From Candidatus Moraniibacteriota bacterium (lineage in GTDB: Bacteria > Patescibacteriota > Minisyncoccia > Moranbacterales > UBA2206), in NCBI GenBank assembly GCA_030645735.1, contig JAUSNP010000005.1, positions 8,151-72,150 of the forward strand: a DNA stretch of 64,000 nucleotides, given 5' to 3'. The notes under the pieces are model-generated. The model searched no databases and was not told the DNA's origin. It saw nothing but the letters and a program-made list of their open reading frames with translations. Shown piece after piece: positions 3,806 to 64,000 of this stretch (its first letter is position 1; every line of letters begins with the position of its first letter). The position numbers and the translations under genes are program-made.

Positions 3806-3870
3806 GAAGTTATCCACAGGGCAGGGTATTGACAGTGATAATGATAGTGATAAAATATCATCAAGGAGGT
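3806..3870 (+). promoter_or_regulatory. promoter element with upstream TTATCCACAG box (copy 1)
   Basis: aGTTATCCACAGg, 9 nt, TTGACA, 17 nt, TAAAAT; similar ~60-bp elements at 8420 and 19903; box alone at 22880. Confidence 0.5.
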
Positions 3871-4261: not shown

Positions 4262-5086
4262 ATGAACAATGAAAATAAAAATAACTTAATGATTTTTGAA
4301 AATAAAGAAGTTCGGCATATTTGGCATAATGGCGAGTTGTTTTTTTCAGTGGTAGATATTGTGGAAGTGCTATCAGAAAGCCCACACCCAAGGCAATATT
4401 GGGAAAAAGTAAAACAGAGAGAATTTATTGAGATTGAAGTGTCCCCAATTTGGGTACAGTTGAAATTAGAAGCATCTGATAGGAAGCTTAGGCTTACAGA
4501 TTGTGTAAATACGGAAAATGCTCTTCGCCTAATTCAATCAATACCGAGCAAGAAGGCTGAGCCTTTTAAGCTGTGGTTAGCAAAAGTCGGGCATGATCGT
4601 ATCAAGGAAATCGAAAATCCTGAATTGGCAGCCAATCGCGCTCGTGAAATTTATCGTACCAAGGGTTATCCAGAGGGCTGGATTGAAAAGCGAATGCGGG
4701 GAATTGAAGTGCGGGAGACATTGACCAGTGAATGGAAAGGTCGAGGGGCAAAAGAGGGAGTAGAATATGCAATTCTAACTAATGAAATTTTGCATGGAAC
4801 TTTTGACATGACTGCTGAAGATTATAAAAAATTTAAAGGATTGAGGCGTGAAAATTTGCGTGATCATATGGATGATCTGGAGCTTATTTTGACAATGTTA
4901 GGCGAAGCGACAACCACCAGAATCCATAAGGATAGGGACTCAAGAGGTTTTGAAAAGTTGAAGGGCGATGCTAAGGAGGGTGGAGCGGTGGCGGGCAGAA
5001 CAAGAGAAGATATAGAAAAAAGAACCGGTAAAAATATTTCTACAAAAAATAATTTTTTAAGCTTGAAGCAAGAGAATATTGTATGA
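4262..5086 (+). CDS. Bro-N / DinD-like phage antirepressor-family protein
   Basis: 274 aa; N-terminal Bro-N-like block (FENKEVRHIWHNGELFFSVVDIVEVL). Confidence 0.55.
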   Translation: MNNENKNNLMIFENKEVRHIWHNGELFFSVVDIVEVLSESPHPRQYWEKVKQREFIEIEVSPIWVQLKLEASDRKLRLTDCVNTENALRLIQSIPSKKAEPFKLWLAKVGHDRIKEIENPELAANRAREIYRTKGYPEGWIEKRMRGIEVRETLTSEWKGRGAKEGVEYAILTNEILHGTFDMTAEDYKKFKGLRRENLRDHMDDLELILTMLGEATTTRIHKDRDSRGFEKLKGDAKEGGAVAGRTREDIEKRTGKNISTKNNFLSLKQENIV

Positions 5087-8503: not shown

Positions 8504-9355
8504 ATGGAAAAACAAATAATAACAAAGCTGCACAAGGATTTCGAAAATTGCGCTCATGAAGAAAACGGCGTTGAATTTTGGTATGCTAGGGAATTGCAAA
8601 ATTTACTTGGATATGAGAAGTGGGGCAACTTCGAGGGGGTTATTGAAAAGGCAAAAATAGCTTGTGAAAAGGCCAAGCAAAAAGTTGCTGACCATTTTGC
8701 CGGCGTCGGCAAAATGGTTGATTTGGGCTCGGGCAGTAAGCGAGAAGTTTCGGATATTATGCTCACTCGCTACGCTTGTTATTTGATTGCGCAAAATGGT
8801 GATCCGCGTAAAGATGAAATTGCTTTTGCGATGACATACTTTGCAGTGCAAACCAGAAAGCAAGAAATCGTCGAAGAAAGATTGGCACAATGGGATCGAT
8901 TGCAAGCACGAGAAAAATTGTCACTTTCAGAAAAAGAGCTTTCTGGAATTTTGTTTGAACGTGGCGTGGACAATCAAGGCTTTGCACGCATTCGTAGCAA
9001 GGGAGACGCGGCCTTGTTTGGTGGCTACACAACTCAGGACATGAAAAATCGTTTAGGCGTGCCAGACAAAAGACCGTTAGCAGATTTTTTGCCATCCGTG
9101 ACAATCAAAGCGAAAGACTTGGCCAATGAAATCACCAATCACAATGTCAAAAAAGATCAGGCGCTTCAAGGTGAAATAGTCATCACACATGAACATGTGA
9201 AAAACAATCGAGATGTGCGCAGTCTGTTGGCAAAGAACGACATCTATCCAGAAAATTTGCCACCCGCAGAAGATACTAAAAAATTAGAACGAAAATTGAA
9301 ATCAGAAAACAAAAAATTGCCTAAAGTGGTGAAGAAATTGAAAAGTAAAAAATAA
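8504..9355 (+). CDS. dinD: DNA-damage-inducible protein D-like (Bro-N family)
   Basis: 283 aa; FWYARELQNLLGYEKW ... RYACYLIAQNGDP closely matches E. coli DinD. Confidence 0.75.
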   Translation: MEKQIITKLHKDFENCAHEENGVEFWYARELQNLLGYEKWGNFEGVIEKAKIACEKAKQKVADHFAGVGKMVDLGSGSKREVSDIMLTRYACYLIAQNGDPRKDEIAFAMTYFAVQTRKQEIVEERLAQWDRLQAREKLSLSEKELSGILFERGVDNQGFARIRSKGDAALFGGYTTQDMKNRLGVPDKRPLADFLPSVTIKAKDLANEITNHNVKKDQALQGEIVITHEHVKNNRDVRSLLAKNDIYPENLPPAEDTKKLERKLKSENKKLPKVVKKLKSKK

Positions 9356-10100: not shown

Positions 10101-10306
10101 CTCATTGCAAAATATTTTTTCAATGCATCGTTTATTCCAATACTAACTCATGGCATTTGCTTTTCGAGCATTCTTTGCTACAATAAAAAACCTGCTTTAG
10201 GCGGGTGATTTGTACTTTTATATATGCGATCGAGGGCTCTTAGTTTGAGCAAAAGCTGTTGCCAATGGTGGCGAATAAACAGGTGAAAACGAGGAGGAGG
10301 AAAGCG

Positions 10307-11638
10307 ATGGACGAGAATATTGTTGTTGTGGCTAAGGGTAAGACCAAAACACTGTATGAACTTCCGGATCGTCCTGGGGTGGTATTGGTCAGAAGTGGCA
10401 ATGAGATTACCAAAAACGATGATCCGGATGCTACCAAACTCATGGAAAGCAAGGCGCTCCATGCAACCTCAACTACGTGCGCGATTTTCTCTTTGTTGAA
10501 GGCGGCGGGGATTCCGGTGGCCTTCTTGGAACGAACTTCGCCAACCGAATTTCTGGCGCCCAAGTGCAAGATGATCCAACTGGAAGTCATTATGCGTCGT
10601 TATGCTCCTTTGAAAAGTAGCTACATTATGCGTCGTCCTGATTTAGAAAGGGCCGCTGGGGAACTGCCTCATCGTTTCCACCGTCTGATGTTTGAGCTTT
10701 TTCTCAAGACGACCAGTGGTGAGATTCGAAATCGGTATGGCGAAGTCGTTGGCAAGATGCCCAACGATTGCTTGGAAATCGAGCGTAAAAAGCCAGTTGA
10801 TGATCCATTGCTGGTTGACTGCGCTGATGGGATTTGGGAACTTCGTCACCCGAAAATCCCAAGTTGGGATGATCGATCGAAATTCGATATGCACATCAAT
10901 ATGGGCGATGTTTTGCCAAATAGTGTGACAGTCGAGATGATCGAGGAACTGGCTCGCAAAACTTTCCTGGTTCTGGAAGGTGCTTGGTCCCAGCTCGGTT
11001 GTCGGTTGATCGATTTCAAGATCGAATTCGGCCTTGGGCCGAACGGTGAGCTTCTCGTGGCCGATGTTATCGACAATGACAGCTGGCGCCTGCGGGATAG
11101 CAATTGGCAGGAATTGTCCAAACAGCTCTTCCGTGATAATGCGGATATGAGTCAAATCGCTGACAAGTATGCCCTGGTGGCCAATTTGACCAGTCGACTC
11201 ACCATTCCTCAACAGGCCATTGTGCTGTGGCGCGGATCCAAAGACGACGATCTCCCTGAAGTTCCGGTTCTGGCTGGAATTGAAGGGATTAAGATCATTG
11301 ATTCTGGTCACAAATCCCCGGGTATTTGCCTGTCTTCTCTCGAAGATGTGTTGGCGACCTATCCTGAGGGTGGTGTGGTGTTGGCACTTGTCGGTATGAG
11401 TAATGGTCTTGGGCCGACGCTGGCCGCAAGAACGAGTTGGCCTGTGATCGGAGTGGCGATAACGGCAGGAAATCATCCAGAAGATGTCTGGAGCAACCTT
11501 AGAATGCCAAGGCAGGTTCCGATGGTGACGGTGCTTTCACCAACAAACGCTGTGTTGGCCGCGCTCAACATTCTGGCTCAGAAAAATCCGGTGGCCTATA
11601 TGCACAGGCAATATGCCATCGAGAAGCTGGACAAGTAA
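10307..11638 (+). CDS. purCE: bifunctional SAICAR synthetase (PurC) / AIR carboxylase-N5-CAIR mutase (PurE) fusion
   Basis: N-terminal ~310 aa match PurC (AKGKTKTLYEL, LIDFKIEFGL); C-terminal ~140 aa match PurE (WRGSKDD, MPRQVPMVTV, TNAVLAALNILA); strong SD GAGGAGGAGG 6 nt before the ATG at 10307 (the ORF track used TTG at 10259); locally GC-richer than neighbours. Confidence 0.8.
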   Translation: MDENIVVVAKGKTKTLYELPDRPGVVLVRSGNEITKNDDPDATKLMESKALHATSTTCAIFSLLKAAGIPVAFLERTSPTEFLAPKCKMIQLEVIMRRYAPLKSSYIMRRPDLERAAGELPHRFHRLMFELFLKTTSGEIRNRYGEVVGKMPNDCLEIERKKPVDDPLLVDCADGIWELRHPKIPSWDDRSKFDMHINMGDVLPNSVTVEMIEELARKTFLVLEGAWSQLGCRLIDFKIEFGLGPNGELLVADVIDNDSWRLRDSNWQELSKQLFRDNADMSQIADKYALVANLTSRLTIPQQAIVLWRGSKDDDLPEVPVLAGIEGIKIIDSGHKSPGICLSSLEDVLATYPEGGVVLALVGMSNGLGPTLAARTSWPVIGVAITAGNHPEDVWSNLRMPRQVPMVTVLSPTNAVLAALNILAQKNPVAYMHRQYAIEKLDK

Positions 11639-12215: not shown

Positions 12216-13910
12216 ATGGTAGAAATCGAAAGCGAAAAATATAAGGACTTATCAAGAGAGGATCTTTTGAAAGTCATTGAAAAAATGGATTCCCGTAAGA
12301 AATACGGGCTTATTTGGGATGAGGATAAGGTGAAAGAGCAATTTGAGAAAGATGCTGTGAATGCTCTGCCGATTTTGAAGGAAATCAGGGGTAAAGAAAT
12401 TGCTACTAGCCCGGACGAGCCAATAAATATTTTGATTGAGGGCGACAACTATCACGCTCTTTCTGTTCTGAATTTCACTCATCAAGGTAAAATCGATGTG
12501 ATTTATATCGACCCACCATATAATACTGGAAACAAAGATTTTAAATATAATGATAGCTATATAGATAAAGAAGATGCATATCGTCATAGCAAATGGCTGT
12601 CTTTTATGAATAAGAGATTACGTCTTGCAAAGAGTTTATTAAATGAAACGGGGGTTATTTATATTTCTATAGACGACAATGAGATTGCCCAATTAAAATT
12701 ATTATGTGATGAGATTTTTGGTGAAAATAATTTTGTGAATAATATTGCATTAAGAGTCAGTCCTCCTAATGGCGTAAAAATGACCCATGCTGATAAGACA
12801 ATCTTAAAAGAGAAGGAATATGTTTTGGTTTATGCAAAAAATAATAATTTAGTTTCTTTTGTTCCTCAATTTAAAAAAGCAGATAAGTGGGATAAGCATT
12901 TTAACAACTTTATAGTTAAAAACGGAAAAGATTTATCTAAGTGGGAAGTTGTCTCTCTATCATCAAAATTGAAAGAACTAGAGCTTAATCCAGACTTAGA
13001 GGATGTAGATTTTTTGAAATGGGCAAGAGAGAATTCGGATTGCATATTTCAATCAGTTGGTTTGGCTAAAATTAAGAATATAAAAAAATATAATACAGAT
13101 AGAATTGTTTCAATAGATAATATGGATAATTATTTTGCGTATAAAGGAAGACAAGTGCAATTATTATCTAATAGTATAAAGAAAACAGATAGCGGAGAAA
13201 CACTATCAAGATTGCTTTGCGACCTGTGGGTTGATATTAGTTTTAATAATCTTTTTCAGGAGGGTGGGGTAGAATTTAAATTTGGTAAAAAACCGCAATC
13301 CTTAATTAAAAGATTGATAAAACTTAGCACGGGAAAAAAAGATGCAATGGTTTTAGATTTCTTTGCTGGAAGCGGTTCTACCCTGCATGCTATTTTGGAG
13401 TTAAATGGCGAGGATGGGGGAGCCAGAGAATGTATTATTTGTACAAATGATGAAGAAGGTATTTGTACTGAAATTTGTTATCCGAGAATAAAAAATGCAA
13501 TTAAAGGATATGGAAATAAAAAAGGAAATGGTGGAAATCTTAAATATTTCAAAACTGGTTTTGTAAAAAAGACAATCAACAGAGATGATATGAAAATGAA
13601 ACTCACTCGAGAGTGCACGGAAATGCTCTGTATTCGCGAAGGTGTTTTTGACGAAAAGAAAAAGACCGATGATTATCTGATTTTTGAGCAAGGTGGACGA
13701 ATTATGGCAGTCTATTATTCTATCGAACGCAAAGGACTCAAGGAACTCAAAAAAGAACTAGACAAAATGAAAGGCGAAAAAGTCTTGTATTGTTTTACGC
13801 TAGATCCGCTAGGTTTGGATAAAAGTGATTTTACGAATTGGAAAGACATGCAATTGGAGCCAATCCCACAAAAAATATTAGAAGTGTACGAAGAAATTTA
13901 TGAATATTAA
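12216..13910 (+). CDS. mod: Type III restriction-modification methyltransferase (Mod, N6-adenine)
   Basis: 564 aa; DVIYIDPPYNTGN (DPPY motif IV); C-terminal SAM-binding block (MVLDFFAGSGST); overlaps the downstream res by 11 nt. Confidence 0.85.
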   Translation: MVEIESEKYKDLSREDLLKVIEKMDSRKKYGLIWDEDKVKEQFEKDAVNALPILKEIRGKEIATSPDEPINILIEGDNYHALSVLNFTHQGKIDVIYIDPPYNTGNKDFKYNDSYIDKEDAYRHSKWLSFMNKRLRLAKSLLNETGVIYISIDDNEIAQLKLLCDEIFGENNFVNNIALRVSPPNGVKMTHADKTILKEKEYVLVYAKNNNLVSFVPQFKKADKWDKHFNNFIVKNGKDLSKWEVVSLSSKLKELELNPDLEDVDFLKWARENSDCIFQSVGLAKIKNIKKYNTDRIVSIDNMDNYFAYKGRQVQLLSNSIKKTDSGETLSRLLCDLWVDISFNNLFQEGGVEFKFGKKPQSLIKRLIKLSTGKKDAMVLDFFAGSGSTLHAILELNGEDGGARECIICTNDEEGICTEICYPRIKNAIKGYGNKKGNGGNLKYFKTGFVKKTINRDDMKMKLTRECTEMLCIREGVFDEKKKTDDYLIFEQGGRIMAVYYSIERKGLKELKKELDKMKGEKVLYCFTLDPLGLDKSDFTNWKDMQLEPIPQKILEVYEEIYEY

Positions 13911-16212
13911 TCTCAAAGAATATCAAGAAAGAGCCGTTGATCAGCTCACTGATAAAGTGAAGGGTCTTTTGGAATTAGATGGCGTTGGTGAGGTGTGTGT
14001 TTTTCAGGCTCCGACCGGAAGTGGAAAGACGGTGATGACTGCCAAATTTATCGAAGGGCTTATTCGCGAAATGCCAGAAACAGATTTGTGTTTTGTTTGG
14101 GTTAGTATTGGCAAAGGTAATCTGCATTTGCAAAGCAAGCATAGTCTCGAGCGAATTTTTGGTGGCTCGCCAAGAGTTTCTTTGATCGAGGAAGAATTTA
14201 ATGGTGGACGCGAAAGAATTGTGCGAAATGAAGTTGTAGTGGCTAACTGGGAAAAATTGCGAACAAAGGATCGAGAATCTGGAGATTGGAAAAATGTTTT
14301 AATGAAAGACGGCGAGAAAATAAATTTCCGTGAAGTTTTAGCCAAAACCAGGGAGCAAAGACAAATTATTTTAATCATTGATGAAAGTCATATTGGAGCA
14401 ACAGCAGAACGAACTGGCGAACTGCGAAAAGAAATCAATGCGGATGTGATTATTGAAATGAGTGCCACCCCGACCATTACGCAGAATGTTTTTGAAATTG
14501 TGCGTGTCAATCCATCTGAAGTTATTGAAGAAGGAATGATTAAAAAAGAATTGATTATCAACGAGGGCATCAACAAAATTGAAAATGATGAAAAGGATTC
14601 ACAGGAAGTCGTTTTGGAAATGGCCTTTCAAAAAAGATTAGAACTCAAAAAATTATTTGAAAAAGAGGGTGTGAATGTTAATCCACTGGTGCTTATTCAA
14701 ATTCCAACGGCCGAAGCTGGCAAGGATAAAATCGAAGCCGTTCGAGAATTTCTTGGCAAAAGAAATACTATTGAGCGAAAAAATGGCAATGGAAATGGTA
14801 AGTTGGCCATCTGGTTGGCTGATCAAAAATCAGAACAACTTGATTGGATCTCAGAGCCTGACAATGAAATTGAATTTTTAGTTTTCAAACAAGCAATCGA
14901 TACTGGCTGGGATTGTCCGCGCGCTCACATTCTCGTGAAATTTCGAGAATCACACAGTGAAACTTTTGAAATTCAAACTGTCGGACGGATTTTGCGTATG
15001 CCTGAACAAAAGCATTATGAAAGCGAGGATTTGAATCGTGGCTATATTTTCACCAATGTCCAAAGCATTTTGGTGAAAAAAGAAGAATACAATCCAAATA
15101 TCATCAAGCACCTCAAAGGTGAGAGAATCAATGATTATAAATCAATGAAGCTCACTTCGTATTTTAAACAGCGAGTTGATTATGGTGATATAACTTCCAG
15201 CTTCACGCCGACATTCGAAAAAGTCGCCAATGAATATTTTGGCCTCAATGGTGATTATACTCTTTTTGCGGAGTGTGCTGCACTTGTTGAAAAGAAAGGC
15301 ATTTCTGTCGACGTGAAACATTATGAGCAAGAAATTATTGCAGACACGAAATTAGATATGAAATCGTTTGATGAATTGCAAGGGAAAATTACACCCGAAA
15401 CAATCAAGCGACTGACTATTGCCGGCAACGATTTGGACAATATGTTCAAGCAGGTCATCAAGAGCAATCTGGGATCATTCCGAGGCGTGAAGCGTTCTGT
15501 TTCCCCGATAAAAACAGCTATCTATTGTTGGTTTAAAAAATATTTGGGTTCTGATAGTTGGAATGAGCCAAGCTTTTTGACTCAAAAAATATTTTTACAC
15601 AATGGTAACAAAGCGGTTTTCGAAAGAATACTGGTGCAAGCTATTGAAGCATATCGAGAAGTGAAAGAAGAAGAAGTTCGCGAGAAGGTCAAGGAAAGCG
15701 AAAAATATTATGATTTTGAATTGCCGAAAGAATTATTTTTCAATGATCACACGGATGAACTAGTTGAAGTGAAAAATTACGCCTATGATAAATGTTATCT
15801 TGGTAAAGATCGTTCCGAGCCAGAAAAGCATTTTGAAAAATTCTTGGATGGTAATTCGGAAAAAATTGCATGGTGGTGGAAAAATGGAGAGAATAGGCAA
15901 GATTATTTCGGCGTGCGCTATGAATACAAGGGCGAAATTTTCACTTTCTATCCTGATTATCTCGTTCAGTTTAAAGCTGGCAATCTTGGAATTTTAGAAG
16001 TCAAAGACTCAGGCGATCGTGACGGAGGTGGAAAAACCAAAGCCAAAGCAGAAGCCTTGCAAAAACATCTTGCAAGTCAAAAAAATGATAAACTTTTTGG
16101 CGGTGTTGTAATTGAAAAAAATGGTGATTGGTTGATAAATTCTGAAGATGTTTATAATTGGGAAAAATGCGAGAATGGAGACTGGGGTGAGTGGAAAATT
16201 TTAGAACTATAA
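13900..16212 (+). CDS. res: Type III restriction enzyme Res subunit (helicase-nuclease)
   Basis: 770 aa; Walker A FQAPTGSGKT, DEAH-like IIDESH, helicase C motifs (QTVGRILR); translationally coupled to mod. Confidence 0.8.
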   Translation: MNINLKEYQERAVDQLTDKVKGLLELDGVGEVCVFQAPTGSGKTVMTAKFIEGLIREMPETDLCFVWVSIGKGNLHLQSKHSLERIFGGSPRVSLIEEEFNGGRERIVRNEVVVANWEKLRTKDRESGDWKNVLMKDGEKINFREVLAKTREQRQIILIIDESHIGATAERTGELRKEINADVIIEMSATPTITQNVFEIVRVNPSEVIEEGMIKKELIINEGINKIENDEKDSQEVVLEMAFQKRLELKKLFEKEGVNVNPLVLIQIPTAEAGKDKIEAVREFLGKRNTIERKNGNGNGKLAIWLADQKSEQLDWISEPDNEIEFLVFKQAIDTGWDCPRAHILVKFRESHSETFEIQTVGRILRMPEQKHYESEDLNRGYIFTNVQSILVKKEEYNPNIIKHLKGERINDYKSMKLTSYFKQRVDYGDITSSFTPTFEKVANEYFGLNGDYTLFAECAALVEKKGISVDVKHYEQEIIADTKLDMKSFDELQGKITPETIKRLTIAGNDLDNMFKQVIKSNLGSFRGVKRSVSPIKTAIYCWFKKYLGSDSWNEPSFLTQKIFLHNGNKAVFERILVQAIEAYREVKEEEVREKVKESEKYYDFELPKELFFNDHTDELVEVKNYAYDKCYLGKDRSEPEKHFEKFLDGNSEKIAWWWKNGENRQDYFGVRYEYKGEIFTFYPDYLVQFKAGNLGILEVKDSGDRDGGGKTKAKAEALQKHLASQKNDKLFGGVVIEKNGDWLINSEDVYNWEKCENGDWGEWKILEL

Positions 16213-19989: not shown

Positions 19990-21006
19990 ATGGTGAAAAA
20001 ACAAAAAGAAGCTCCAAAACAAGGGGAGATTATAATCTACAAGGACAAGCGCGGGGAAATCGAGCTTGAGGTTAATGTTGGCGACGAGACTATATGGCTT
20101 ACACAAAAACAAATTGCAGATCTATTTGATAAGGGAGTTCCTGCAATAAATGAGCATATAAACAATATATACAAAGAGAAAGAGTTGAGTAGAAGGGCAA
20201 CTATTCGGAAATTCCGAATAGTTCGTTTAGAAGGCAAAAGAATGGTTGAACGTGAAGTGGACTCTTATAGCTTAGATATGGTTCTATCTGTTGGTTATAG
20301 AGTTAGTTCAAAACGTGCCACTCAATTCCGTATTTGGGCAACCAATGTTTTGAAAGAACATCTTTTGAAAGGTTACACGGTGAATCAAAAAAGATTGTTG
20401 CAAGAACGAGAAAATTTTGAAAAATTGCAAAAAACCATTGCGTTTTTGCGCGAGAAGGCGCACGCTAAAACTTTGCAAGGGCAGGAGAGTGAGATTTTAG
20501 ATCTTTTGGGTGACTATGCCAGAACACTGACCTTTTTGGAGCAATATGACAAAAGCAAATTGAAAGTGGCGCGCGCGGGGAAGGCGAAGTTTGTTTTGAA
20601 ATATGAGGTTTGCCAGAATATTGTAACGGAGATCAAGCGTGAGTTGATGGCCAAGAAAGAAGCGAGCGATATTTTTGGCACCCAGCGTAGCGGAGCTTTT
20701 GAATCTGTTATCAAAAATTTATACCAAACTTTTGGTGGCAAAGAATTGTATGCCAATCTAGAAACGAAAGCGGCTCATCTTTTGTATCTAGTCATCAAAG
20801 ATCATCCATTTTCTGATGGCAACAAGCGCATCGGCGCATTCTTGTTTGTATACTTCTTAGACAAAAACAGATATCTTTATGACACCAAGGGTGAAAAGAA
20901 AATCAATGACAACGCTTTGACGGCTTTGGCTTTGTTGGTGGCAGAAAGCAATCCAAAAGAAAAAGATGTTATAATTGCCTTGATAACTAATTTGTTGAAT
21001 AAATAG
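19990..21006 (+). CDS. RhuM-family protein with C-terminal Doc/Fic domain
   Basis: 338 aa; N-terminal Bro-N/ORF6N-like block (GEIELEVNVGDETIWLTQKQIADLF); C-terminal HPFSDGNKRIGAF fits the Doc-type HxFx(D/N)GNKR motif. Confidence 0.7.
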   Translation: MVKKQKEAPKQGEIIIYKDKRGEIELEVNVGDETIWLTQKQIADLFDKGVPAINEHINNIYKEKELSRRATIRKFRIVRLEGKRMVEREVDSYSLDMVLSVGYRVSSKRATQFRIWATNVLKEHLLKGYTVNQKRLLQERENFEKLQKTIAFLREKAHAKTLQGQESEILDLLGDYARTLTFLEQYDKSKLKVARAGKAKFVLKYEVCQNIVTEIKRELMAKKEASDIFGTQRSGAFESVIKNLYQTFGGKELYANLETKAAHLLYLVIKDHPFSDGNKRIGAFLFVYFLDKNRYLYDTKGEKKINDNALTALALLVAESNPKEKDVIIALITNLLNK

Positions 21007-57253: not shown

Positions 57254-57327
57254 GGGCGTGTAGCTCAGTTGGTTAGAGCGCGTCACTGATAATGACGAGG
57301 TCCCCAGTTCGAATCTAGGCACGCCCA
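57254..57327 (+). tRNA. tRNA-Ile(GAT)
   Basis: GGGCGTGtaGCTCagttggttaGAGCgCGTCActGATaaTGACGaggtc...TTCGAATC...CACGCCCa. Confidence 0.85.
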
Positions 57328-57328
57328 C

Positions 57329-57589
57329 ATGTTTACTACATACATCATCAAAAACTGTAGTGGGAAGAGTTATACAGGAAGTACTGAAAATGTGAAAGAA
57401 AGGATTTTGATGCACAACGATATTTCTGTAGAAAAAGCAAGATTTCATAGAACTACTTATAATAAGGGTCCATGGTCAATCTTTTTTAGTAAGGATTTTG
57501 AAACTAGAAAAGAATCTTTGGATTTTGAGAAATTTCTTAAAACAGGTGCGGGAAGAGAGTGGTTAGAGCGCGCCCGCCGCGGCGGGTAA
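57329..57589 (+). CDS. small GIY-YIG nuclease-family protein
   Basis: 86 aa; YIIKNCSGKSYTGSTENVKERILMHN; the last ~11 codons are read from tRNA-Ile-derived sequence. Confidence 0.65.
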   Translation: MFTTYIIKNCSGKSYTGSTENVKERILMHNDISVEKARFHRTTYNKGPWSIFFSKDFETRKESLDFEKFLKTGAGREWLERARRGG

Positions 57590-59133: not shown

Positions 59134-59805
59134 ATGTTTAGAGGAAAAAAGTACAAGGCAGTTGCAGAAAAAATCGATAAGAACAAAGTGTATTCTATCG
59201 AAGAGGCTGTGAAAATGATGAAGGAAAATAAGATTGCCAAATTTGACGAATCAGTGGAGGTTCACATCAAAACCAATGTTGATCCAAAGAAAGGTGACCA
59301 ACAAATTCGTGGAACAGTGTCTCTTCCGCACGGAACTGGCAAAACTAAACGAGTGGCAGTTATCACTTCAACTAGCGCTGAAGAGGCCAAAGCAGCTGGA
59401 GCTGACATTGTCGGTGGCGAAGAAATGATTGAAAAATTTGCTAAAAAAATTGACTTCGATATTTTGGTAGCTACTCCAGAAATGATGCCAAAATTGGCCA
59501 AGGCGGCTCGAGTTTTGGGGCCAAAGGGCTTGATGCCAAACCCAAAGACTGAGACCGTTACAACGAAAATTAAAGAGGCTGTAGAAGCTTTGAAGAAAGG
59601 CCGTTCAGCTTTCAAGAATGATGATTCAGCCAATGTTCATCAAGCAGTGGGAAAGCTTTCTTTTGAAGATGCGAAGCTTGTAGAAAACATCAAATTCTTT
59701 GTAGATGCTATCAGCAAAGCTAAGCCAGCTGCTTTCAAGGGCAAACTCATCACCAACATCACCGTTTGCTCGACTATGGGCAATGGAATTAAAATTAGTC
59801 TATAG
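59134..59805 (+). CDS. rplA: 50S ribosomal protein L1
   Basis: MFRGKKYKAV...; the ORF track begins at GTG 59092, the ATG at 59134 fits the L1 N-terminus. Confidence 0.85.
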   Translation: MFRGKKYKAVAEKIDKNKVYSIEEAVKMMKENKIAKFDESVEVHIKTNVDPKKGDQQIRGTVSLPHGTGKTKRVAVITSTSAEEAKAAGADIVGGEEMIEKFAKKIDFDILVATPEMMPKLAKAARVLGPKGLMPNPKTETVTTKIKEAVEALKKGRSAFKNDDSANVHQAVGKLSFEDAKLVENIKFFVDAISKAKPAAFKGKLITNITVCSTMGNGIKISL

Positions 59806-59983
59806 ATTCACGTTAACATTTGAACATGTTAGCATATTAACAAAAAACACTGGCTTTGGTCAGTGTTTTTTTGTGTTTTGTTAAAATGTTAATATGTTAA
59901 AGTGCTAAATTGTTTATAATGTTGACTGTGTGGTATTTTTCTGCTAGAATTATTTGGTGGTTAATAAAGTAAAATTTCTGAAG

Positions 59984-60556
59984 ATGGGACAAAAAAGAAA
60001 GATTATTATTGGCTTGATAGGTGAGAGTGGCTCAGGCAAGGATACGGTCGCTAACTATTTGAAAGACAAATATGGGGTCAAATTGATGCGTTTTGCGGAT
60101 CCGATTAAAGAGGTCTTGCATATTTTTTTCGATCAAATTTCAAGAGAAGATCAGCAATGGTTAGCGCTTGAAATGAGAAAAAGATTTGGGGCTGATATTT
60201 TCCCAAGAGCCATAAAAAGAAGAATCGAAAATGAAGAAGGCGTTGTTGTAATCAACGGCCTGCGATTTTGGGAGGATTATGATTTTATTAAGAATGTAGA
60301 ACACGGATTCACTATATATATAACAGCAGATCAAAAATTGCGCTGGGAGAGGTCAGCCAAGAGAGGTGAAAAATCTGATGACGATGTTTCTTTTGAAGAA
60401 TTTAAAGAAACAGAAGAAAGATATGAAACCGAAAAGCATATCCCAGAAATTGGAGCCAAAGCAGATTTCACAATTCGCAATGAAAAGGACTTGGATTATC
60501 TGTTGTCCGAAACAGATCGGATAATGGGTGAGATAACACAAAAATCGATGCAATAA
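59984..60556 (+). CDS. deoxynucleoside monophosphate kinase, phage T4 gp1-like
   Basis: GLIGESGSGKDTVANYL...RFADPIKEVL parallels T4 gp1 (SGVKRSGKDTTADFI...LAGPIKDAL). Confidence 0.55.
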   Translation: MGQKRKIIIGLIGESGSGKDTVANYLKDKYGVKLMRFADPIKEVLHIFFDQISREDQQWLALEMRKRFGADIFPRAIKRRIENEEGVVVINGLRFWEDYDFIKNVEHGFTIYITADQKLRWERSAKRGEKSDDDVSFEEFKETEERYETEKHIPEIGAKADFTIRNEKDLDYLLSETDRIMGEITQKSMQ

Positions 60557-60644
60557 ATTAAGAGTCCCGTCAAAGCGGGACTTTTTTTGACCAAAAAGGT
60601 GAAAAAGAGTAAAATTAAGAAACTCAGAACCTAAAGTAACTAGC

Positions 60645-61193
60645 ATGAAAAAACAGAAAATCATCGCAGTTTTGGGGCTTCCGGGGTCAGGCAAATCGGT
60701 TGTGATTAACTATCTGATCAAGAAATATAATTGGCCAAAGATTTATTTCGGTGAGGTGACCTTCGATGAAATGCGCCGATTGAATTTGGAAATCAATGAG
60801 AAAAATGAAAGGCGAGTGCGGGAAAGTTTGCGCAAAGAATTTGGTGAATTGGTCTATGCCAAAAGAGTGGCTGAAAAAATTGCAAAATTAAATCATGAAG
60901 AGGTGATTTTGTTGGAAAGCCTATATTCTTGGCATGAATATCTATTTTTGAAAAAGAAATTTGGCGAAAAATTCAAAACCATCGCTGTCTATGCGTCACC
61001 GGAAAAAAGATATAGCCGACTCGAAAATAGAAAGACCCGCCCATTGAATTTGAAGGAGGCACAAAGTCGCGACTATTCGCAAATTGAGAATCTACAACAA
61101 GCCGGACCGATTGCAATGGCGGATTATTTGCTGGTAAATGAATCAACTAAAAAGGAACTATATCTTAAAATAAACAAAATTAATTTACAATAA
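60645..61193 (+). CDS. P-loop nucleoside/nucleotide kinase (CoaE/dNMP-kinase-like)
   Basis: 182 aa; Walker A VLGLPGSGKS; small kinase fold. Confidence 0.5.
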   Translation: MKKQKIIAVLGLPGSGKSVVINYLIKKYNWPKIYFGEVTFDEMRRLNLEINEKNERRVRESLRKEFGELVYAKRVAEKIAKLNHEEVILLESLYSWHEYLFLKKKFGEKFKTIAVYASPEKRYSRLENRKTRPLNLKEAQSRDYSQIENLQQAGPIAMADYLLVNESTKKELYLKINKINLQ

Positions 61194-61197
61194 AAAT

Positions 61198-62175
61198 ATG
61201 ACAAGTACGGAAGTTAAAAATAAAGTAGTGGGAGGCATTGATTATCTTCCATTTAGCGAGAGAGTTCCTGATTTGCAATATCAAGAATTACTTAAAAAAA
61301 TTAAAAAAATAGGAAAAGATAAAGTGCCTATTCATGCTAGGCTCAATGAGAATGCTAATTCAGGGCATCAAAACTCAAAAGAAATAACAGGTGCTATGTT
61401 GCAATTTGATATGAATAACGGTTTCCCTGTTTTGACTGAACGTGATTTGAGCAAATCATTTTATGGAGCGATAGGTGAGCTTGTTGCATTTTTGAATGGA
61501 CAAAGCACATTAAGTGGCCTGAAAGAGTATGGCTGCCCAGAAGTTTTTTGGAGAGATTGGGTTACAAAGGAAAAATGTGCCATATTTGGTTTACCTGAGG
61601 GTGATTTGGGTGATGGATCTTATGGGGCTTCTCTAGGGCATTTTCAATCCGCAAAGGGGGAATTTGATCAAGTCAGTGCTGTTCAAAGGCAAATGGAAAA
61701 AGCGCCATTCCTGAGAACCCATGTTCTAACTACGTGGAATCCGCCCCTATCAATGGGAGATGAAGAACAGGGATTTAAGCGTAAAGTTGTTGTTGCTCCT
61801 TGTCATGGCAATTTCATTCATTTTGTAATTTTTGATGAACAAAAAGAACTGGAAATGACACACACACAACGATCAGCTGATGTCCCAGTCGGTCTGCAGT
61901 TTAACTTGATTGAATGGTCCGCTCTTGGTTTGATGGTAGCACACTTATTGGGTTATAAATTTACTAAATATACTCACTTCTTATCTAATCCGCATTATTA
62001 TGATGTTCAAGCTGAATCTGTGGATAAAATTTTGGCTATTGAGCCCAAGCCTTTTCCAACTGTAACATTGAAACTGAATAGGGAAGTGACAAGACTTCAA
62101 GACTTCCGCAAAGAGGATTTTGTGCTTGAAGATTATGACCCAAGTCCTTGGTTCAAAATTCCAACACCGGTATAG
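61198..62175 (+). CDS. thyA: thymidylate synthase-family protein (ThyA or pyrimidine hydroxymethylase homolog)
   Basis: 325 aa; VAPCHGNFIHFV (catalytic Cys), TQRSADVPVGLQFN, WNPP; diverged from canonical ThyA with a longer N-terminus. Confidence 0.65.
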   Translation: MTSTEVKNKVVGGIDYLPFSERVPDLQYQELLKKIKKIGKDKVPIHARLNENANSGHQNSKEITGAMLQFDMNNGFPVLTERDLSKSFYGAIGELVAFLNGQSTLSGLKEYGCPEVFWRDWVTKEKCAIFGLPEGDLGDGSYGASLGHFQSAKGEFDQVSAVQRQMEKAPFLRTHVLTTWNPPLSMGDEEQGFKRKVVVAPCHGNFIHFVIFDEQKELEMTHTQRSADVPVGLQFNLIEWSALGLMVAHLLGYKFTKYTHFLSNPHYYDVQAESVDKILAIEPKPFPTVTLKLNREVTRLQDFRKEDFVLEDYDPSPWFKIPTPV

Positions 62176-62201
62176 ATCAAATAATTTACAATATTAGTGA
62201 T

Positions 62202-62642
62202 ATGAATAAAAGCGGATTAGATTTAAAAAATGCTCGTAAAGAGGAACAAATTGCAGTTATGAAAAAAATTATTTCTGATGGGGTGTGTCCTTTTTGTCAT
62301 GATTTTGTTGATAAGGAAAAACCAGCATATCATTCAAATCCTGTTTTGATAGAAACTGATTTTTGGATAGTGACGAGAAACGCTTGGCCGTATGAACACA
62401 CCAGAGAACATTTGGTTATTGTGATTAAGCGCCATATCTTGACGCCTGAAGAAATGAGAGATGAGGAGATTTTGGATTTGTGGAATATTATTAAAAAAGT
62501 TAAGCAAGAACTTGAAATAACGCACAGTACTTTTTTGATGCGTTCGGACAGTACTGGTAAAACAGGTGCAACCGTGCAACATTTGCACGCTCAGCTGGTT
62601 GTTGCTAGTGGCGATGAGCCAGTTATCACAAGGATTGGCTAA
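62202..62642 (+). CDS. HIT-family hydrolase
   Basis: histidine triad VQHLHAQLV; CPFC zinc-like motif; start moved to MNKSGLD. Confidence 0.6.
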   Translation: MNKSGLDLKNARKEEQIAVMKKIISDGVCPFCHDFVDKEKPAYHSNPVLIETDFWIVTRNAWPYEHTREHLVIVIKRHILTPEEMRDEEILDLWNIIKKVKQELEITHSTFLMRSDSTGKTGATVQHLHAQLVVASGDEPVITRIG

Positions 62643-62690
62643 GAGTGCAATAAAAAAGACCATTGAATAAATCGATGGTCTTTTTTTGTA
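62640..62690. terminator. bidirectional terminator between convergent genes
   Basis: AAAAAGACCATtgaataaatcgATGGTCTTTTTTT. Confidence 0.6.
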
Positions 62691-62696
62691 GAATTG

Positions 62697-63542
62697 CTAT
62701 TGCACTAAAATAATTTCAATTCCAGCATTCTTGAGGATATTTTCAGCATCAGAAAGTGAATAACCATTTTCATAGTAAACCTTTTTAATACCTGCTTCTG
62801 CCACTAGCTTGGCGCAAGTTGGACAGGGGAAGGTTGTGACGTATAAATTGGTATCGTTCAAACTAATTCCGTTCTTGGCAGCTTTTCCAATCAAAGACGC
62901 TTCTGCATGAATAGAGTTTGAAAGATGATGATGTTCGCCAGCATCAAAACACATTCGCAAGTCACCATAAACAGCCATATTTTCTTGAGTGGGAACATGG
63001 CGATTGAATGCTGAAAGTATTATCGAACCATTTGTGTCTGTGACTAGGGCCCCAATTTGTCTCCACCAATTGGCGCTTTTTTCTTTCAATTCGTTGGCTT
63101 TTTTCATAAGTTCCTCATGCGCTTTTTCATACGTAATTATTCTATCACTAGGAACTTCCAGCTCTTGAGTTGACACAGGCTTATTCCATCTCAAAAAGAC
63201 ATTTTCAAATTCAACTTTTGTATTGGGCAGGAATTCTTCTGCGAACCAGCGAGATACGTCTTCATCAGGCATAACAATGGAAAGATGTTCCTCTTCCAAG
63301 TTTTTCAAATTTGCCAACGTTAACAAATCAACATTTTTTACAATGCCTGATTTTTTGATAAAATCATAAACAGTTTTTTGATCAATTGATCGCAGGTCTC
63401 TCCTTAAATTTTCAAATCTATCCCATTTTTCCAGGATTGTATTGTCTAGAATATAAAGATGATCCGGATATTTTTTGAATAATTCTAAGTATTTGATATG
63501 GATGACTGGGACTAGGGCAATCAGAGTTTTTCTCTCAGACAT
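62697..63542 (-). CDS. dCMP/cytidine deaminase-family protein with ~150-aa N-terminal extension
   Basis: 281 aa; C-terminal HAEASLI...PCPTCAKLV zinc motif; N-terminal half without recognised family. Confidence 0.7.
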   Translation of the reverse strand: MSERKTLIALVPVIHIKYLELFKKYPDHLYILDNTILEKWDRFENLRRDLRSIDQKTVYDFIKKSGIVKNVDLLTLANLKNLEEEHLSIVMPDEDVSRWFAEEFLPNTKVEFENVFLRWNKPVSTQELEVPSDRIITYEKAHEELMKKANELKEKSANWWRQIGALVTDTNGSIILSAFNRHVPTQENMAVYGDLRMCFDAGEHHHLSNSIHAEASLIGKAAKNGISLNDTNLYVTTFPCPTCAKLVAEAGIKKVYYENGYSLSDAENILKNAGIEIILVQ

Positions 63543-63543
63543 A

Positions 63544-64000
63544 TTATTTTTTAGTATATAAAAATTTTTCTATGACTTTTTGCAATTCTTGTGCAAGATC
63601 CTCAGCCCCCTTGATAGTTAGGAGTCTTATGCGCGCAGAAGTTGAAGTTGTTGATTGTGGTTCTAGGTTGATGATTTCTTTGCAGAACTCATTATGTTCT
63701 TCTCGTATCATATCAATAAACTTTTTCCCCTGAGCATTTGATTCGGTGGTTTCTGACACAACTAGAACGTCTGGTCGAATATCCCTAATCAGTTTTCCAT
63801 GATCTGTTTTTGATTCTTTCATAACAATCAGATCAACATGTCGCAGATGAGAAATCATCTTCACTCTTTCATCTTCTGGAACAATCGGGCGGGTCGGGCC
63901 TTTGCGATGCTTCACTACTTCATCAGTATCGACAGCTACAATCAAAACATCGCCAAGTTCTTTGGCTTTCTGAAGGTATTTAGCGTGTCCCTCATGAATC
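63544..64000 (-). CDS. cytidylyltransferase-like (HxGH) nucleotidyltransferase, 5' end beyond the window edge
   Basis: reading frame continues upstream of the track's TTG start: IHEGHAKYLQKAKELGDVLIVAVDTDEVV...RPIVPEDER (HxGH nucleotidyltransferase fold). Confidence 0.55.
   Translation of the reverse strand, partial: IHEGHAKYLQKAKELGDVLIVAVDTDEVVKHRKGPTRPIVPEDERVKMISHLRHVDLIVMKESKTDHGKLIRDIRPDVLVVSETTESNAQGKKFIDMIREEHNEFCKEIINLEPQSTTSTSARIRLLTIKGAEDLAQELQKVIEKFLYTKK

Follow-up and report, generated by a model that had tools for sequence, protein, structure and literature searches.

The stretch analysed here (the window) comprises 64,000 nucleotides of contig JAUSNP010000005.1, from a genome catalogued as Candidatus Moraniibacteriota bacterium, and its right-hand end carries six genes of nucleotide metabolism: two small P-loop kinases (K1 and K2), a thymidylate synthase (TS) homolog, a HIT-family protein, a deaminase and a nucleotidyltransferase (NT). 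All six had been proposed in an earlier sequence-only reading, and an open reading frame (ORF) was found for each at the expected place. In all probability, the region is the left part of an ordinary chromosomal cluster for thymidylate and deoxypyrimidine supply in Candidatus Moranbacteria, within the Patescibacteria or candidate phyla radiation (CPR). The genes are arranged as follows.

59984-60556, + strand: K1, a DNMK-family (T4 gp1-like) P-loop deoxynucleoside monophosphate (dNMP) kinase of 190 aa, matching PF21448 and phrog_139 and belonging to a K family whose profile matches T4 gp1, with a gene call of 190 aa on the overlapping public contig L032.
60645-61193, + strand: K2, a paralog of K1 with 182 aa, a P-loop protein (AAA_18/17) related to K1 with E 3e-15 in phmmer.
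61198-62175, + strand: TS homolog of 325 aa, assigned to a Patescibacteria-specific ThyA clade from PF00303, TIGR03284, residues, tree and linkage to dihydrofolate reductase (DHFR).
62202-62642, + strand: HIT-family protein of 146 aa, from a probable ATG start at 62202 that gives the same length as the gene calls of relatives, with the motifs CPFC, NAWPY and HLHAQ.
62697-63128, - strand: catalytic dCMP-deaminase domain (residues 139-281 of the deaminase), with HAE and PCPTC zinc motifs and matches to PF00383, in the PDB and by Foldseek.
63129-63542, - strand: N-terminal domain of the deaminase (residues 1-138), predicted to adopt a HUP-class Rossmann fold nearest to cytidylyltransferases, with a degenerate HxGY motif.
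63544-64000, - strand: cytidylyltransferase-like gene (NT) with an HEGH motif; the window end truncates it, and the complete gene of 194 aa spans 63544-64128 in L032.

The TS homolog scores 167 bits against PF00303 (gathering threshold 24.3), and because its residues 27-322 align with profile positions 2-263 of 266, the long N-terminus ascribed to it earlier is reduced to about 25 residues plus three internal insertions; its divergence and its catalytic PCH and QRSAD motifs were described correctly. Against TIGR03284 it reaches 112.2 bits, above the cut-off of 108.35. On the same model E. coli ThyA scores 455 bits, a phage TS 403, CPR proteins 93-152 and three hydroxymethylases 31-58, the last aligning over the catalytic core only and without the C-terminus, whereas the TS homolog aligns end to end.

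Residue states were compared in a MAFFT alignment, in E. coli ThyA numbering, with E. coli ThyA, T4 gp42 (a dCMP hydroxymethylase) and SPO1 gp29 and M6 gp58 (dUMP hydroxymethylases) as the reference set. The TS homolog keeps E58, W80, W83, Y94, R126, C146, H147, Q165, R166, S167 and D169, together with G173, F176, N177, H207 and Y209, and six of these positions (C146, R166, S167, D169, Y94 and E58) are invariant in 116 clade members. The phage hydroxymethylases have the PF00303 superfamily, the catalytic Cys, R166 and D169 in common with it. However, they lack W80, W83, H147, Q165 and F176, which form the folate-binding and hydride-transfer set and are all kept in the TS homolog, and they lack the C-terminal tail, which in the TS homolog is hydrophobic (..KIPTPV) and of the same length as in E. 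coli ThyA (..KAPVAI). At position 177, T4 gp42 carries Asp and the TS homolog Asn, within the segment LQFNLIEW; of the 120 window-type homologs listed, 119 have N177 and one is a gapped fragment. Asn177 denotes specificity for uracil rather than cytosine (PMC8670742).

Neighbour joining of 27 sequences over 276 columns, with 300 split-based bootstraps and with a mis-extracted Embleya 'TS' ORF (14% identity) left out, recovered the CPR sequences as monophyletic in 98-100% of bootstraps and as a long-branch sister of canonical ThyA, apart from T4 gp42, SPO1 gp29 and M6 gp58. The best phage tblastn matches of the TS homolog are 27-31% identical and annotated as TS, no nearer than cellular ThyA. 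Thus, neither residue state, nor the TIGR03284 calibration, nor the tree places the protein among the hydroxymethylases, and since model scores, residues and tree all agree, it is best read from its sequence as a divergent but genuine ThyA. The N-terminal extension of the clade, about 25 residues long, is conserved and contains an invariant Arg22.

The cluster continues beyond the window. L032, a contig of 16.8 kb, agrees with the last 4000 nt of the window at all 4000 positions and extends 9.5 kb past its end; its genes are given here in window-equivalent coordinates.

to 64128, - strand: remainder of NT.
64261-64764, - strand: NUDIX gene.
64990-65466, + strand: DHFR.
65469-66158, + strand: canonical thymidylate kinase Tmk (PF02223).
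66155-66577, + strand: dUTPase (Dut).
66615-68105, + strand: gatB.

The ~200-aa ORFs of the 64-kb window include no tmk candidate. The genome search proposed earlier for a canonical tmk was answered by the same cluster, in L032; in the closest relatives Tmk is likewise kept between DHFR and Dut. Synteny was assessed in 26 related loci, searched by tblastn with the window proteins, and from precomputed gene calls. All of the loci found in GTDB species genomes (22/22) belong to metagenome-assembled genomes of Patescibacteria, the source databases name the TS and deaminase families as Moranbacteria, Paceibacteria or Parcubacteria, and a database entry 100% identical to the window deaminase is labelled 'Candidatus Moranbacteria bacterium'. 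A core of thyA-HIT on one strand, deaminase-NT on the other, and DHFR is present in every locus whose TS is 37-94% identical to that of the window; where the TS is 33% identical, HIT, NT and DHFR are retained and the extended deaminase is swapped out. HIT and NT equal thyA in their conservation within the cluster, and the members found at variable positions in relatives are serine hydroxymethyltransferase (SHMT), dUTPase, MazG or NUDIX, Tmk, and one or two K-type kinases. The order secE-nusG-L11(-L1)...thyA-hit / dcd-NT...DHFR is conserved in genomes with TS 33-69% identical, which indicates vertical inheritance.

DHFR also adjoins the canonical thyA of Rhodococcus, Bacillus, Mesomycoplasma, a staphylococcal plasmid and a T5-like phage. 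Linkage to DHFR has served to distinguish a true TS from a dUMP hydroxymethylase, since folate is oxidised by TS alone, hydroxymethylation yielding tetrahydrofolate (THF) (PMC4528723). Taken together, thyA, DHFR, SHMT, Tmk and Dut make up the gene set of the full classical thymidylate cycle. The bacterial thyA-folA operons of Bacillus, Mycoplasma, Rhodococcus and staphylococcal plasmids share with the CPR cluster the catalytic Cys, N177, the folate residues and the in-cluster DHFR, and like them the CPR cluster is associated with dCMP deaminase, dUTPase, Tmk and SHMT. It differs from them in that its TS sits on a long branch (~30% identity), lacks R21 and R127 and carries the extension with the invariant Arg, and in that HIT, cytidylyltransferase-like and DNMK-type kinase genes are interleaved among the others. 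In one related CPR thymidylate cluster (L004:13305-14060, - strand), a CofE-like gene (PF01996, F420-0:gamma-glutamyl ligase) adjoins DHFR and may act as a stand-in for folate polyglutamylation.

The description of K1 as gp1-like was right at the family level. Its P-loop reads GESGSGKDT and a second motif FADPIKE, and it matches PF21448, a DNMK model built on T4 gp1, with 44.3 bits (gathering threshold 27.1) over profile positions 2-75 of 232 only, and phrog_139 (deoxynucleoside monophosphate kinase) with 105 bits over its full length. K1 has in common with the T4 gp1, PF21448 and phrog_139 kinases the GxxGSGKDT P-loop, the PIK(D/E) motif and a C-terminal segment. Unlike T4 gp1, it is cellular, has 190 rather than 241 aa and lacks the central insertion, and the direct match between the two is weak (28.6 bits in a 6-sequence search). 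A profile of the K family, built from the K-type genes of related loci, gives a co-linear match to T4 gp1 at both termini; it finds no match in M6 gp54 (a 5-hydroxymethyl-deoxyuridine (5-hmdU) DNA kinase), in SPO1 gp22.1 or in the cluster's own Tmk, nor does K1 or K2 singly match M6 gp54. K2, the second small P-loop kinase of the sequence-only reading, is nearer to archaeal UPF0200 proteins than to the gp1 kinases: its nearest solved relative is Sulfolobus SSO1041 (UPF0200, AdkA-like; PDB 3lw7/3h0k, E 5e-12), and its only matches among the phrogs are phrog_139 (40 bits) and phrog_10255 (45 bits).

Because a canonical Tmk lies in the same cluster, where it coexists with K1, both proteins are additional kinases and not replacements of Tmk. 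Displacement of Tmk by K1 or K2 had been considered upon finding Tmk in K-less loci only, and was ruled out by the canonical Tmk in the continuation of the window. T4 gp1 acts on dGMP, dTMP and hm-dCMP. For K1 and K2, (d)NMPs other than dTMP are the most likely substrates.

The deaminase gene (62697-63542, - strand) encodes 281 aa, of which residues 141-257 alone match PF00383 (68.6 bits). H212, E214, C240 and C243, the zinc-site residues of HAE and PCxxC, are invariant in the deaminase alignment, and sequence and fold searches return the dCMP deaminases of S-TIM5, T4, PBCV-1, S. mutans and human, with 1vq2 and 4p9c found by Foldseek; the score under the ComEB equivalog model stays below its cut-off (55 vs 219). 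The zinc-dependent CDA fold with HAE and PCxxC is thus common to T4 cd, the S-TIM5 and S. mutans enzymes, human DCTD and the window deaminase, which differs from all of these in its 138-aa HUP/cytidylyltransferase-like N-domain. The G(Y/W)NG segment, which we take to be part of the allosteric site of canonical dCMP deaminases, reads AFNR in the window protein and serves here as a lead only.

An N-terminal extension had been noted at about 150 aa; it is indeed present, with a length of 138-140 aa, and no Pfam model matched deaminase residues 1-140. A fold search with the full-length protein returned matches to the deaminase domain only, and the N-domain was then modelled alone. The AlphaFold2 model is an alpha/beta Rossmann-like fold (pLDDT 86, pTM 0.77), and the alignment shows invariant P12, H15, Y18, R48, D49, R51, P92, F116, R118 and W119, with the consensus VPVIHxGY. 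Its top Foldseek match is 3glv, a cytidylyltransferase-like protein of Thermoplasma (E 0.012, probability 0.98, TM ~0.5), followed by the glycerol-3-phosphate cytidylyltransferases 2b7l and 1coz and then by FAD synthetase, PanC and UspA, a set of matches that defines the HUP class. None of these fold matches was stronger than E 0.001, and hhalign of the N-domain profile against the NT family placed HxGY on HxGH without significance (probability 0.9%, E 0.065). For these two reasons the model is described as a predicted HUP fold, nearest to cytidylyltransferases, and its homology to NT as suggested by the fold rather than proven.

NT was correctly seen to run off the window, and its membership of the cytidylyltransferase-like family is evident from PF01467 (63-71 bits), the HxGH motif, present as HEGH, and a C-terminal (S/T)-rich ..STS-ARIR segment. 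In the PDB it matches ECT (3elb, 7e-20), 5x9q ('putative cytidylyltransferase'), 3glv and TagD; under the RfaE-II equivalog model it falls below the cut-off (85 vs 181). An exhaustive HMMER search with the N-domain yielded 300 representative clusters, nearly all of them ~280-aa proteins of the same architecture. The exception, P0346 (469 aa), joins a cytidylyltransferase domain, a HUP domain and a deaminase through an in-frame linker; it occurs on contigs of two assemblies (ERZ1426824 and ERZ1426813, ENA), convergent to thyA, and a metagenome scan for this NT-deaminase fusion found nothing. On the P0346 contig the gene after thyA encodes a 315-aa 'DHFR', about twice the normal length, which may be a HIT-DHFR fusion.

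ECT (PDB 3elb) consists of tandem cytidylyltransferase domains, and both of its repeats match NT. Like ECT, P0346 has an active cytidylyltransferase domain followed by a degenerate, cytidylyltransferase-like one. Unlike in ECT, the motif of the second domain is without its second His (HxGY for HxGH) and a deaminase is joined to this domain, and in the window each half is encoded by its own gene, the two lying side by side. Given the fold of the N-domain, the P0346 fusion, the likeness of NT to ECT and the tandem layout of ECT, our best guess is that NT and the deaminase N-domain pair physically as an ECT-like pseudo-dimer.

The identification of the HIT gene held, by PF01230 (25 bits, gathering threshold 21.5) and by the HLHAQ motif; the protein is a weak but consistent family member, and its best PDB match reaches only E 0.03. 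The gene lies directly 3' of thyA in all loci (22+). CPFC and NAWPY are conserved, and the triad reads HLHAQ in Moranbacteria and HLHxH in other CPR orthologs. HLHAQ was considered as a GalT-like phosphorylase signature and ruled out; it is unreliable for that purpose because the orthologs switch between Q and H at this position. Several clusters contain extra HIT paralogs, and the larger HIT paralogs of relatives showed no further domains in Pfam.

From these gene identities, conserved residues, gene orders and fold assignments we infer the enzyme activities and kinase specificities of the proposed route. The 281-aa deaminase would convert dCMP to dUMP, and Dut, just past the window end, would supply dUMP from dUTP. 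The CPR-type ThyA would then carry out the reductive methylation of dUMP to dTMP with methylene-tetrahydrofolate, the resulting dihydrofolate being recycled by the adjacent DHFR and, in relatives, the folate recharged by SHMT. Phosphorylation of dTMP would fall to the canonical Tmk of the cluster, and K1 and K2, as DNMK-family enzymes, would most likely serve other (d)NMPs. As a best guess, NT and the degenerate transferase-like domain of the deaminase, as a pseudo-dimer, would tie deamination to the supply or sensing of cytidine nucleotides, and the HIT enzyme would cleave a nucleotidyl intermediate. The dCMP-to-dUMP-to-dTMP-to-dTDP route in a cell, which the sequence-only reading gave as the mundane possibility, is thereby supported, with DHFR, Tmk and dUTPase beyond the window and SHMT and MazG in relatives.

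Four observations weigh against this assignment. First, the TS homolog is strongly diverged, with 30% identity to E. coli ThyA and scores that fall short of all NF0024xx equivalog cut-offs; at 138 vs 327 for NF002497 and 114 vs 327 for NF002495 (both of the NCBIfam PRK01827 type), it has to be regarded as a divergent subfamily. Second, the phosphate-binding R21 and R127 are replaced by N and T, respectively, across the whole CPR clade, with R126 and R166 kept. R22 of the N-terminal extension may compensate for this loss, and mutagenesis work on the L. casei enzyme reportedly found that the R127-equivalent position tolerates substitution. Third, the hydroxymethylases split from the TS and CPR sequences in just 67% of bootstraps of the neighbour-joining tree of 27 sequences. 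Fourth, the classical pathway has no role for HIT, NT, the HUP domain or two extra kinases, despite the conservation of HIT and NT. The earlier reading had set out what plain salvage would look like, a TS homolog firmly within ThyA and with its folate and hydride-transfer residues intact, and this picture largely applies: most TS-specific residues are intact and the protein belongs to a Patescibacteria ThyA clade, although conservation is lost at R21, R127 and D205.

Patescibacteria are thought to rely on nucleotides that they scavenge, and a search of the literature on CPR thymidylate synthesis found nothing specific. The novelty is limited to lineage-specific variants, namely the ThyA clade without R21 and R127, the HUP-domain dCMP deaminase coupled to a cytidylyltransferase, the thyA-linked HIT gene and the occurrence of DNMK-type kinases in a cell. 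To our knowledge, HIT, the cytidylyltransferase and a deaminase-fused HUP domain have no assigned role in any textbook pathway. Solving the functions of HIT, NT and the HUP domain, and of a ThyA that lacks R21 and R127, would bear on the way in which ultra-small symbionts keep dC and dT pools in balance.

The strongest competing explanation concerns only the sub-part on the roles of HIT, NT and the N-domain, and is a serious one, if somewhat short of probable: HIT and NT could be functionally unrelated neighbours that a streamlined genome retains through operon inertia, with roles perhaps in making CDP-alcohols for the envelope and in general housekeeping of nucleotides; the N-domain might then be only an oligomerisation or regulatory add-on. 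The nearest solved relatives of NT (ECT, TagD, CCT and 5x9q) do act on phospho-alcohols or sugar phosphates, the hhalign comparison of the N-domain with the NT family is not significant, and we know of no thymidylate pathway that requires such a cytidylyltransferase or HIT protein. Inertia accounts poorly, however, for the presence, in every locus and even at 33% TS identity, of HIT after thyA and of NT before dcd, for the natural in-frame fusion of NT to a HUP-deaminase in the two assemblies with P0346, and for the best fold match of the N-domain, 3glv, being a close sequence relative of NT. Going further in the opposite direction, NT, the HUP-domain deaminase and HIT could together form a CPR-specific branch for cytidine-nucleotide entry into, or control of, thymidylate synthesis, not yet described; we consider this rather unlikely. 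In one version of such a branch NT, in an ECT-like pseudo-dimer with the deaminase N-domain, would make a (d)CDP-linked intermediate from (d)CTP, HIT would cut it to (d)CMP, and the deaminase would deliver dUMP.

The phage-type 5-hydroxymethylpyrimidine pathway, which had been raised earlier alongside salvage, fares much worse. It would make the TS homolog a dUMP (or dCMP) hydroxymethylase that, with K1 and K2, produces 5-hydroxymethylpyrimidine nucleotides for modified DNA, as in SPO1, M6 and T4. The membership of K1 in a phage dNMP kinase family is in keeping with this, as are the high divergence of the TS homolog, barely over one ThyA equivalog cut-off and without R21 and R127, and the fact that a dCMP deaminase also feeds dUMP into the SPO1-type pathway (PMC8989533). 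Yet the TS state is found at N177, W80, W83, H147, Q165 and F176 and in the C-terminal tail, where the three reference hydroxymethylases differ; the ThyA alignment runs end to end where the hydroxymethylases reach the core only, at 31-58 bits; and the tree does not group the protein with them. DHFR, conserved in the cluster, would be needless for a hydroxymethylase because hydroxymethylation yields THF, and the cell would need another source of dTMP if the enzyme made none. A canonical Tmk is present, K1 and K2 are unlike M6 gp54, and the cluster showed no amino-acid:DNA transferase, glucosyltransferase or dTTPase. The phage thymidine-hypermodification pathway (5-HMUDK plus aGPT-Pplase/AADT) is likewise not represented, with no homolog of the 5-hmdU DNA kinase beside the TS and no transferase-type genes in the cluster. 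Given also the CPR-wide synteny, we regard a hydroxymethylase as very improbable and retain a cellular ThyA. A gp1-like kinase beside a diverged TS homolog in a CPR genome is accordingly no signal of modified DNA, and the DHFR/Tmk/Dut context together with W80, W83, H147, Q165, N177 and the C-terminal tail offers a quick test of TS vs hydroxymethylase in metagenomic data.

Just as improbable is an anti-phage function in which K1, K2 and the deaminase would form a split dCTP deaminase of the AvcD/NF041025 type, defending the cell by nucleotide depletion. The idea arises from profile matches: the kinase-like N-domain of PADLOC PDLC02373 is matched by K1 and K2 (46 bits for K2) and its deaminase domain by the deaminase, so that the two halves of the model are covered, and NCBIfam NF041025 weakly matches all three proteins. 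The score, however, is 82 bits against an NF041025 cut-off of 400, kinase and deaminase are separate genes on opposite strands and not one polypeptide, and the deaminase has an N-domain of its own and of a different kind. In addition, its nearest structures are dCMP, not dCTP, deaminases, and the genes stay linked to thyA, DHFR, Tmk, Dut and SHMT, next to ribosomal genes, in divergent CPR lineages, a pattern of housekeeping and not of patchy defence islands. The least probable explanation, phage-derived cargo in the chromosome (a prophage remnant or auxiliary metabolic genes), can point to the best-characterised relatives of several members being in phages (T4 gp1, T4 cd, the S-TIM5 deaminase) and to the Bro-N proteins and type III restriction-modification (R-M) system that show some mobile DNA elsewhere in the window, but it is contradicted by the lack of phage structural or replication genes nearby, by GC content (0.37-0.39) and skew continuous with the flanks, by a gene order kept in genomes with TS 33-69% identical and by phage TS matches (27-31%) no nearer than cellular ThyA.

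The chromosomal setting is that of a cell. The rest of the window holds housekeeping ORFs (EF-G, RecQ, EF-Tu, NuoF-like, HypF and MurD) and two tRNAs, and secE-nusG-rplK-rplA lie directly 5' of the nucleotide cluster, with rplA ending at 59805. Both GC content and GC skew pass smoothly from the flanks into the cluster. Signals around and within the genes are listed below; the promoter candidates are pattern matches alone, from a consensus scan.

59842-59871, + strand: terminator-like hairpin after rplA, a 13-pair stem followed by a T-run (consensus scan), dividing the ribosomal-protein genes from the nucleotide cluster.
59922-59950, + strand: sigma70-like promoter candidate TTGACT-17-TAGAAT with TG, 10/12 matches, 34 nt 5' of K1.
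60587-60615, + strand: sigma70-like promoter candidate TTGACC-17-TAAAAT, 10/12 matches, 5' of K2.
62019-62027, - strand: perfect DnaA-box 9-mer (TTATCCACA) inside thyA, where the + strand encodes ..SVDK..
62652-62687, no strand assigned: intrinsic terminator for both directions, placed between the two convergent operons, with A6 and T7 on either side of a 9-bp stem.

The 54-nt gap between HIT and the deaminase contains the last of these hairpins, with RNA folding energies of -19.5 (+) and -14.9 (-) kcal/mol and z-scores of -6.8 and -6.1, and the predicted structure is that of a bidirectional terminator. The genes would accordingly be read as two convergent transcription units, K1 / K2-thyA-hit and NT-dcd, that share one bidirectional terminator.

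Outside the window, a sister clade of the TS homologs in Paceibacteria (37 protein clusters, P0390-P0426) carries Asn176-Asp177 ('PND'), like the 'RND' of T4 gp42, and usually His165, while still having W80, W83, H147 and the ThyA tail. Four loci with an Asp177 TS were located (L025:9998-10870, L026:5762-6631, L041:8001-8870 and L042:8001-8879); in all four the HUP-deaminase is replaced by another PF00383 deaminase of ~190-213 aa on the opposite strand, and HIT, NT, DHFR and SHMT stay. The co-variation of Asp177 with the deaminase swap suggests a dCMP-directed methylase followed by deamination of 5-methyl-dCMP. Judged from these sequences, the clade may use a re-ordered route to dTMP via 5-methyl-dCMP; modified cytosine nucleotides in a cell are less likely. 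Linked to the cytidine branch outlined above, this would amount to the reverse order of steps, dCMP to 5-methyl-dCMP to dTMP. If true, it would be new for a cellular housekeeping locus to encode a dCMP-directed TS-family enzyme, and more surprising than the window cluster.

The DnaA box in reverse orientation within thyA, pointed out earlier, is real, and it is one of seven perfect 9-mers (TTATCCACA) in the window, against 0.69 expected, a number reached in 0/100 shuffles. The seven lie at 3810, 8429, 17134, 19914, 22880, 49731 and 62019, and at least five are intergenic; most of the copies outside thyA adjoin promoters. Those at 3810, 8429 and 19914 (TTATCCACAGrG) stand ~10 nt upstream of a sigma70-like -35/-10 pair. 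Since GC skew is monotonic across the window, the boxes outside thyA look like a recurrent promoter-upstream element, not an origin.

Several other features of the window lie apart from the cluster. A fused PurC (SAICAR synthetase)-PurE (AIR carboxylase) ORF of 459 aa (10259-11638, + strand) coincides with its GC-richest stretch (0.477 vs ~0.39); purine-synthesis genes are not expected in a CPR genome, and the fusion gene may have been acquired. The lowest-GC stretch (0.334) holds a type III-like R-M pair (12216-16212, + strand), consisting of an N6/N4 DNA methylase (564 aa) and a helicase-nuclease of the ResIII type (770 aa); it is the sole DNA-modification function seen in the window, and one of ordinary methylation. 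Two Bro-N domain proteins and one RhuM-Fic protein (4262-5086, 8504-9355 and 19990-21006, + strand), which typify mobile or phage-related DNA, are scattered among the housekeeping genes 5' of the ribosomal-protein operon. Finally, an 86-aa ORF (57329-57589, + strand), which overlaps the region of the second tRNA gene (57254-57327), has a start that by eye appears GIY-YIG-like.

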